From positions 828,232 through 892,231 of the forward strand of contig NW_019217810.1 of NCBI RefSeq assembly GCF_002571385.2: DNA of 64,000 nucleotides, read 5' to 3'. This document shows, piece after piece, positions 29,261 to 30,315 of the stretch; position 1 is the first letter of the stretch, and each line of letters begins with the position of its first letter. The position numbers and the translations under genes were made by a program. The notes under the pieces are model-generated. The model was not told the DNA's origin, made no database searches, and saw only the letters and a list, made by a program, of their open reading frames with translations. Source of the stretch: Stylophora pistillata (taxonomy: Eukaryota).

Positions 29261-30315
29261 ATGCGTCACTTTAACACGGTCTCATCACGATCCTTGGGAC
29301 ATGTAAGAAGATGGGTCACTCGCAGATTGTTATCAACACTGAACACTAAGGGAGAGATCAAGAACGATTCAAAATGTGATCAAGTTAGCAGCTTTAATGT
29401 TCCAAACCCGTACATTCCAAATTTCGCAGGTATGTGACTAAATTCACATTTACACACCCAAGTAATTAAGTGTAGGTAACAATATACGCCGTGGTGCACC
29501 AACTTGTCTTTGTCCTTTTCGATAAATGAGAAATTAAATTTTTAAACCAACTGACTGACTGACCGAGCGAATACTTGACCGACTATATCTGACGGACCGC
29601 ATGACCGATTGACTTCTTGATCAATGGGTGTCTAGCTCTTATAGCATGCGAAAAAGAACGATCGATTTTCTTTCATCAAATAATTTTTAGTTTAATCTCA
29701 AAATCATTTATACAAACAAATGATGTAATATTATCCTTGCAGGTGAATATATCAAACCGCTGCAATGGAAAATGTACACTAAAAGTCACATTCCAGCCAT
29801 ATTGAACACGTACTGGCCTCGAGGAGCACAGTCCGTGGACCCTCTGCCATACCTAGCAGCGGCATCCATTCTGCCAATGCGTACAAACAATTACGTGGTA
29901 ACTCAGCTAATCGACTGGTCTGCCGTACCGGATGACCCTATGTTTCAGCTCACCTTTCCACAACCAGGTCAGCATCGAGAATTTAGCGCTGGTAGTGTTG
30001 TCAGCAATAAAACAATTTTAGTTTAAGCCATCGTCGCGTCAAGCCAAGTTAATCGTGGTGAGATTGATTTGGTCTTGAGCAAGACTCGCAAGCGTATTTC
30101 AACATAAAGGGGGTACGTTTCTAAAGAAATTCTGGTGTTACATCGCTGGAGGGGTATTAGGGAGATACTTTGGTTTAATCAACCGTGTTTATAGGGAATT
30201 AGCCACCGTAAAGGGTTTTTAAGGCTGAATTCACTCTAACGAAGGGCTAATGTTCGAAACGTCAGCTTTAGAATTTATACAGTGGCTAATTAACAATTAT
30301 TCCACGAGCGCGCGC

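Follow-up and report, generated by a model that had tools for sequence, protein, structure and literature searches.

Carrying a cleavable matrix presequence on the first coding exon is a known arrangement, and the R-3 rule describes where such mitochondrial presequences are cut. Radical-SAM enzymes of mitochondria can be served by a ferredoxin, as lipoyl synthase is by FDX1. Radical aminomutases of the KamA type have been described as an oxygen-sensitive and little-known class in a recent preprint (bioRxiv 10.1101/2025.11.21.689712). Our literature search, for which most subscription papers were beyond reach, returned no description of a PLP-dependent aminomutase in mitochondria, no account of the eukaryotic clade considered below or of its localisation or substrate, no experimentally tested member of that clade, and no paper on the 'aq1632' aminomutase after which some of its members are named.

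Here we analyse a KamA-like gene within 64,000 nucleotides of contig NW_019217810.1 of the coral Stylophora pistillata (the window, to which all positions refer). An initial annotation, made from the DNA letters, had proposed that the enzyme was domesticated by gaining a separate exon for a mitochondrial presequence, and had tied it to lysine catabolism. We find a real spliced exon and a likely presequence, and it is our working view, held with somewhat better than even confidence, that this enzyme would belong to an old eukaryotic KamA-like branch acting on an acidic amino acid.

Results

Gene structure and transcripts

The first coding exon had been placed correctly: the last base of its TTTTCAG acceptor is 29252, its ATG starts at 29261 and its donor comes after 29429. 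The 169 coding nucleotides (56 codons and one base, phase 1) join in frame, as had been proposed, across a 313-nt GT..AG intron to the enzyme body at 29743. The complete frame has 512 codons in six exons with GT-AG introns throughout, and is interrupted in the assembly by an in-frame TGA at codon 156 (Table 1). Genome searches with exon 6 and with exon 1 each found one copy, and a Pfam search of single exons gave one weak, unrelated match among six pieces. A symbiont or bacterial origin of the window was ruled out by the GT-AG introns and the animal-type neighbours. Sulfotransferase genes lie upstream on both strands (5326-16884), and a cyclic-nucleotide phosphodiesterase (minus strand) and an ALS2CR8-family gene lie downstream (39527-59640). 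Intron 2 contains an N-filled assembly gap (30264-31840) flanked on both sides by the same ~600 bases, likely an assembly duplication.

Table 1. Features of the coral aminomutase-like gene, in window coordinates.
Feature	Position	Strand	Details and evidence
Probable untranslated 5' exon, start not placed	17563..17629	+	donor AAC/GTAAGT; no in-frame ATG after upstream stop
Untranslated exon spliced to 29253	22593..22713	+	3' end shown; 5' end (acceptor 22592) inferred
Donor-like site	28855..28863	+	inside intron; crossed unspliced at depth 6.8 (X1) and 4.6 (X2)
First coding exon	29253..29429	+	8 nt UTR, ATG 29261, 56 codons + 1 base; sequence, RNA, P0126
Predicted mitochondrial presequence, residues 1-24	29261..29332	+	composition, hydrophobic moment, motif scan
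Possible R-3 cleavage site before Ser25	within exon 1	+	motif scan, R-3 rule
Charged linker, residues 32-56	exon 1	+	
Coding exon 2, start of enzyme core	29743..29967	+	sequence, RNA; joint to exon 3 from loose ends
Coding exon 3	33037..33252	+	sequence, RNA
In-frame TGA, codon 156, exon 3	33108..33110	+	assembly; CGA (Arg) in two RNA runs
Coding exon 4, CxxxCxxC (residues 207-214)	33739..33864	+	weak donor, intron 4 often retained
Coding exon 5, GGDP motif	34699..34888	+	sequence; joint to exon 4 in one 57-nt X2 contig
Coding exon 6: Arg390, Ser427, predicted PLP Lys434; stop at 35993	35381..35993	+	sequence, alignment

Four of the 24 listed runs (X1, X2, X23 and X24) were compared with 27800-30200; the RNA data come from coral samples. 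The junction 29429-29743, which the initial annotation had proposed to check by RNA, is present in contigs of X1 (depth 166) and X2 (depth 11), from two studies, and in one raw read of X23; X24 has no reads there, and X23 and X24 are shallow over this region (8 and 20 reads). Because a single contig carries both exons, exon 1 has the same depth as exon 2, and none of the 14 loose ends listed, of 22, gave a sign of an alternative entry into exon 2.

On the 5' side the picture had to be revised. The donor at 28857, thought to close an upstream non-coding exon, does exist as a motif (8 of 9 consensus matches), but no joint is seen at it in any of the four runs. Transcripts instead reach exon 1 by way of an untranslated exon whose last base is 22713: the sequence of the loose ends that X1 and X2 show at 29252 matches window positions 22683-22712, 6.5 kb upstream, where a GTGAGT donor comes next. 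Ahead of the joint this untranslated exon contains an in-frame stop and lacks an ATG, which makes Met 29261 the first in-frame start. The same Met begins the transcript-derived Logan protein P0126 (255 aa), which covers exons 1-4 and ends in intron 4; the upstream stop and the start of P0126 agree that translation begins with the exon 1 segment. Farther upstream, 21 of the 22 residues encoded by the probable exon ending at 17629 match the N-terminus of a second Logan protein, P0535, which continues into exon 1; we infer the join of this exon to exon 1 from that protein, which belongs to a close relative, and not from reads. A perfect donor consensus (CAG/GTAAGT) at 22091, about 500 bases upstream of the exon at 22593-22713, may mark the end of another untranslated exon. 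The 5' UTR intron also holds, at 22775-24848, two head-to-head tandem arrays (unit 248-251 bp, 99% alike) with eight tRNA-Thr(AGT)-like copies, probably a tRNA-derived repeat.

The N-terminal segment

The count in the initial annotation is correct in that residues 1-31 contain six Arg, one Lys, four Ser, four Thr and no Asp or Glu. Of the 442 open frames of 31 codons that start with ATG in the window, 3, exon 1 included, have at least six Arg without an acidic residue. A looser rule (at least three Arg, at least four Arg plus Lys and no acid in 25 residues), which was set after the sequences had been seen, was passed by 21 of these 442 frames. It was passed by 12 of 20 labelled eukaryotic homologues that have an N-terminal extension, against none of 19 that lack one, in a list that includes isoforms, close pairs and two coral-like proteins without a species name; none of 113 bacterial-type proteins passed. 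Among extended clade members outside the labelled list only 4 of 17 passed, with 1 of 7 in another set, and both Lingula isoforms and one coral failed. The comparison of N-termini that had been suggested as a check nevertheless agrees with targeting, since N-termini of presequence type are found again in amphioxus, fungi and stramenopiles.

The hydrophobic moment reaches 0.66 over residues 9-19, a stretch without a helix in the predicted model of a close coral orthologue; in that model, residues 1-49 almost all have pLDDT below 50. Exon 1 diverges fast, with 19 of 56 residues differing from that orthologue against 35 of 456 for exons 2-6, and the Arg-rich, acid-free start is kept despite this divergence. 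Within the RRLLS motif singled out as a cleavage site, R22-L-L-S fits the R-3 rule for MPP cleavage. The R-3 pattern was matched in 9 of 14 proteins tested but in none of the four other animal orthologues, and the exact RRLLS is not retained in other animals. A cut near residue 24 would follow from that rule, at a site whose letters are not conserved. An ESM Atlas search with exon 1 gave no usable match. An ER signal peptide and PTS1 or PTS2 signals were ruled out on inspection alone. Composition, predicted disorder, fast divergence, the similar N-termini of homologues and the ferredoxin fusions described below uphold mitochondrial targeting as likely, and we are fairly confident in predicting the matrix as the destination of the exon 1 product.

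Active site, substrate and ferredoxin fusions

The enzyme body has the CxxxCxxC motif at residues 207-214 and a predicted radical SAM barrel, for which the best Foldseek match is lysine 2,3-aminomutase (LAM; 2A5H, E 1.6e-15), also the only PDB sequence match. Lys434, in a GK motif, and the Arg after the cluster motif align with LAM-type proteins, in which the GK lysine binds PLP and the post-motif Arg the carboxylate; the LAM residues considered here are Lys337, Arg134 and Asp330.

The active-site alignment comprised three LAM-type proteins (one over the family cut-off) and two glutamate aminomutases kept of six loci. Two specificity positions read Asp/Asp in the three LAM-type proteins, Lys/Asn in the two glutamate aminomutases and Arg/Ser (Arg390/Ser427 in the coral) in nine of nine clade members aligned. 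Arg occupies the first position in 215 of the 218 rows of a larger alignment, the rows of which were picked on the Ser427 and post-motif Arg motifs, so that counts at those motifs are circular. According to the SFLD study (PMC3965090), the Asp pair binds lysine and Lys/Asn mark glutamate binding. The proposed link to lysine catabolism finds no support in this comparison: with both lysine-binding Asp replaced, by Arg390 and Ser427, lysine would be an unlikely substrate. The residue pattern points to an acidic amino acid as the likely substrate, with glutamate the first choice and aspartate or 2-aminoadipate as alternatives.

Family profiles leave the enzyme outside every named group. The orthologue P0001 scores 116.6 bits against TIGR00238 (KamA; cut-off 199.2), where bacterial members score 127-155; the corresponding values are 81.4 bits against a cut-off of 525.4 for TIGR03820 (lysine 2,3-aminomutase) and 77.8 against 650 for TIGR04368 (glutamate 2,3-aminomutase). 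All seven proteins tested fall far under the NCBIfam cut-offs of every aminomutase family, and the coral protein is equally distant from LAM and glutamate aminomutase (26-30% identity). An ESM Atlas search with the orthologue returned only automatically named aminomutase clusters.

Circumstantial support for glutamate comes from five Nocardiopsis genomes, which carry a clade member as their sole match to the glutamate aminomutase profile; beta-glutamate has been reported from N. halophila, a different species (PMC1224877). Against it, the neighbours around 80 bacterial loci formed no conserved operon or pathway, only local synteny and spurious frames, and beta-glutamate was absent from the phytoplankton cultures of PMC8269262, which may or may not carry the gene. 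Two searched supplement files of a hypo-saline study of Acropora (PMC6381741) held no match. One bacterial-type clade member, P0390, is fused to a lysine/ornithine N-monooxygenase domain, a hint of lysine-related chemistry in at least one member of the clade.

A 2Fe-2S ferredoxin domain (PF00111) lies ahead of the enzyme in all seven long homologues tested (P0011, P0018, P0218, P0322, P0325, P0350 and P0354), in several of them behind a presequence-like start. For the one fused homologue searched, the top ferredoxin matches were mostly adrenodoxin and mitochondrial ferredoxins.

Distribution and phylogeny

Homologues were found in Acropora, Lingula, Branchiostoma, basidiomycetes, ascomycetes, Heterosigma, Cafeteria and a foraminiferan; the closest named proteins are those of Acropora, and close relatives have full-length proteins of 512 residues. 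A FastTree phylogeny of 218 rows, reduced from 402 full-length rows, separates eukaryote-type from bacterial rows, and when LAM-type outgroups are added, the 40 eukaryote-type rows among 109 still form one clade (support 92). In an IQ-TREE analysis of 63 hand-picked rows (long branches and near-copies omitted; LG+G4 without a mixture), 30 eukaryote-type rows, 15 of them labelled from tree position and N-terminus, are monophyletic at 96/96 and four animal rows group at 99/98, under a weak root (71/96). The patchy distribution also fits transfer between eukaryotes.

Since presequence-like ends are spread across this single clade, and exon 1 codes for more than the presequence, the gain of a presequence exon as a coral or animal event finds no support. 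The point at which two Lingula isoforms part is exactly the residue aligned with coral Gly57, indirect evidence that intron 1 predates the cnidarian/bilaterian split. Many ascomycete and foraminiferan-type homologues have no N-terminal extension, from which it follows that the enzyme can probably work outside mitochondria. The extension belongs to the wider clade and was probably lost in many ascomycetes.

The stop codon and intron 4

The TGA at 33108-33110 does not appear in the initial annotation. Reads of X1 and X2 (RNA), X15 and X17 were compared over 32900-34200. Position 33108 is C in X1 and X2 and T in X15 and X17; the latter two cover introns evenly, were flagged as near-identical and possibly the source, and differ from the assembly at one base. 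Relative to the assembly, four further substitutions and a 3-base deletion are common to X1 and X2, and because of these shared differences the simple reading is that the stop is probably an allele. U-to-C editing at 33108 was judged unlikely for the same reason. Selenocysteine was ruled out because homologues have Arg or Gln there: in 25 of them the column holds Arg 14 times, Gln 10 times and Ala once. Of 160 highly conserved columns the window protein departs from one, whereas four orthologues depart from 2-5 each; the stop is therefore probably recent.

Intron 4 (33865-34698) has a weak donor (5 of 9 consensus positions); the main X1 contig keeps it, as does roughly half of X2, where both forms occur. 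At position 33828 the assembly and the four runs have three different bases between them.

Discussion

The data are best explained if this coral gene, present in a single copy, opens with a spliced coding exon for a likely mitochondrial matrix presequence, which would have been inherited along with an ancient KamA-like radical-SAM lineage of eukaryotes. The protein would be imported into the matrix and cut near residue 24, and would there be loaded with its 4Fe-4S cluster and PLP. An adrenodoxin-type ferredoxin, of the kind fused in some homologues, might then reduce the enzyme, which would shift the amino group on an acidic substrate rather than on lysine, and most probably turn glutamate into beta-glutamate. 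Other alleles appear open; the assembled one, with its recent stop at codon 156, would give no enzyme. One could go further and speculate, tentatively, that corals, amphioxus and brachiopods have kept an ancient mitochondrial, adrenodoxin-fed glutamate aminomutase that makes beta-glutamate as an osmolyte or signal, with many lineage losses elsewhere and a polymorphic loss here; animals would then have a so far undescribed way of making a beta-amino acid.

A different history would have a coral or animal ancestor take up a bacterial lysine 2,3-aminomutase, add a presequence exon and put the enzyme to work in mitochondrial lysine catabolism. The position of intron 1, 11 residues before the core motif and about where bacterial homologues begin, favours that picture, which the initial annotation resembled; presequences cannot be aligned between groups, which would allow for separate gains; and both the public names and the best fold match say lysine 2,3-aminomutase. 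We nevertheless consider it quite improbable: animals, fungi and stramenopiles share one clade with the same kind of N-terminus, a P-x-x-x-G pattern across the exon 1/2 border recurs, if weakly, in Heterosigma and two further homologues, the lysine-binding Asp residues are gone, and the TIGR03820 score (81 bits) is far from its cut-off of 525. That the extension is just a basic, disordered tail on a cytosolic enzyme is also unlikely, although the extension is short or missing in 19 of the 39 labelled eukaryotic homologues, one predicted Lingula isoform uses another first exon and the loose composition rule is passed by the 21 of 442 random frames noted above. In distant lineages the protein still begins with an Arg-rich segment free of acid and continues into an acidic stretch, without any similarity of sequence, and some homologues carry an adrenodoxin-type ferredoxin.

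The gene might, on the other hand, be decaying in this coral, with a genuine presequence exon on mostly non-productive transcripts. The TGA stands in the assembly, X15 and X17, X1 and X2 both retain intron 4, the one protein identified from this species (P0126) ends in that intron, and none of the 15 cluster members listed, of 75, is more than 90% identical at full length. Against this, the codon is open in X1 and X2, X2 has a spliced joint of exons 4 and 5, the conserved columns are nearly intact and close relatives are full length. Decay is compatible with the reading we prefer, and we regard it as a minority possibility, somewhat less doubtful than the other two.

If our preferred reading of a mitochondrial enzyme for an acidic amino acid is right, some animals would have an oxygen-sensitive radical aminomutase in their mitochondria, and with it an additional reaction in mitochondrial amino-acid metabolism; a widespread 'lysine aminomutase' label would be corrected; and corals, where salt balance and symbiont nitrogen exchange matter, would have a testable source of a beta-amino acid. 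The natural stop allele could allow colonies with and without the enzyme to be compared.

A presequence on its own exon is ordinary, and the coral example resembles known presequences in its possibly amphipathic start of about 24 residues, rich in Arg, Ser and Thr and free of acid, with a possible R-3 site, in its fast divergence and in having its own exon; it differs in that the exon also encodes a 25-residue charged linker, and in that import and cleavage are predictions. Compared with the KamA/AblA LAM of C. subterminale (2A5H), the coral enzyme keeps the CxxxCxxC motif, the Arg that follows it, the GGD motif and the GK lysine, but the structural alignment gives 18-19% identity, Arg390 and Ser427 stand in for two Asp, and the gene is eukaryotic, with introns and an N-terminal extension. 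With glutamate 2,3-aminomutase (TIGR04368) it shares a basic plus polar-neutral specificity pair, Lys/Asn there and Arg/Ser here, yet identity is 26-29% and its clade is separate. The RefSeq 'putative L-lysine 2,3-aminomutase aq_1632' proteins of Acropora and Branchiostoma are its orthologues (76% and 60% identical), under automatic names. The analogy with lipoyl synthase and FDX1 is that of a proposed 4Fe-4S/SAM enzyme of the matrix, for which the fusions suggest an adrenodoxin-type donor, although the chemistry differs. Taken with these systems, the coral protein is best seen as an uncharacterised variant of a known enzyme class, one that is old in eukaryotes and probably mitochondrial.
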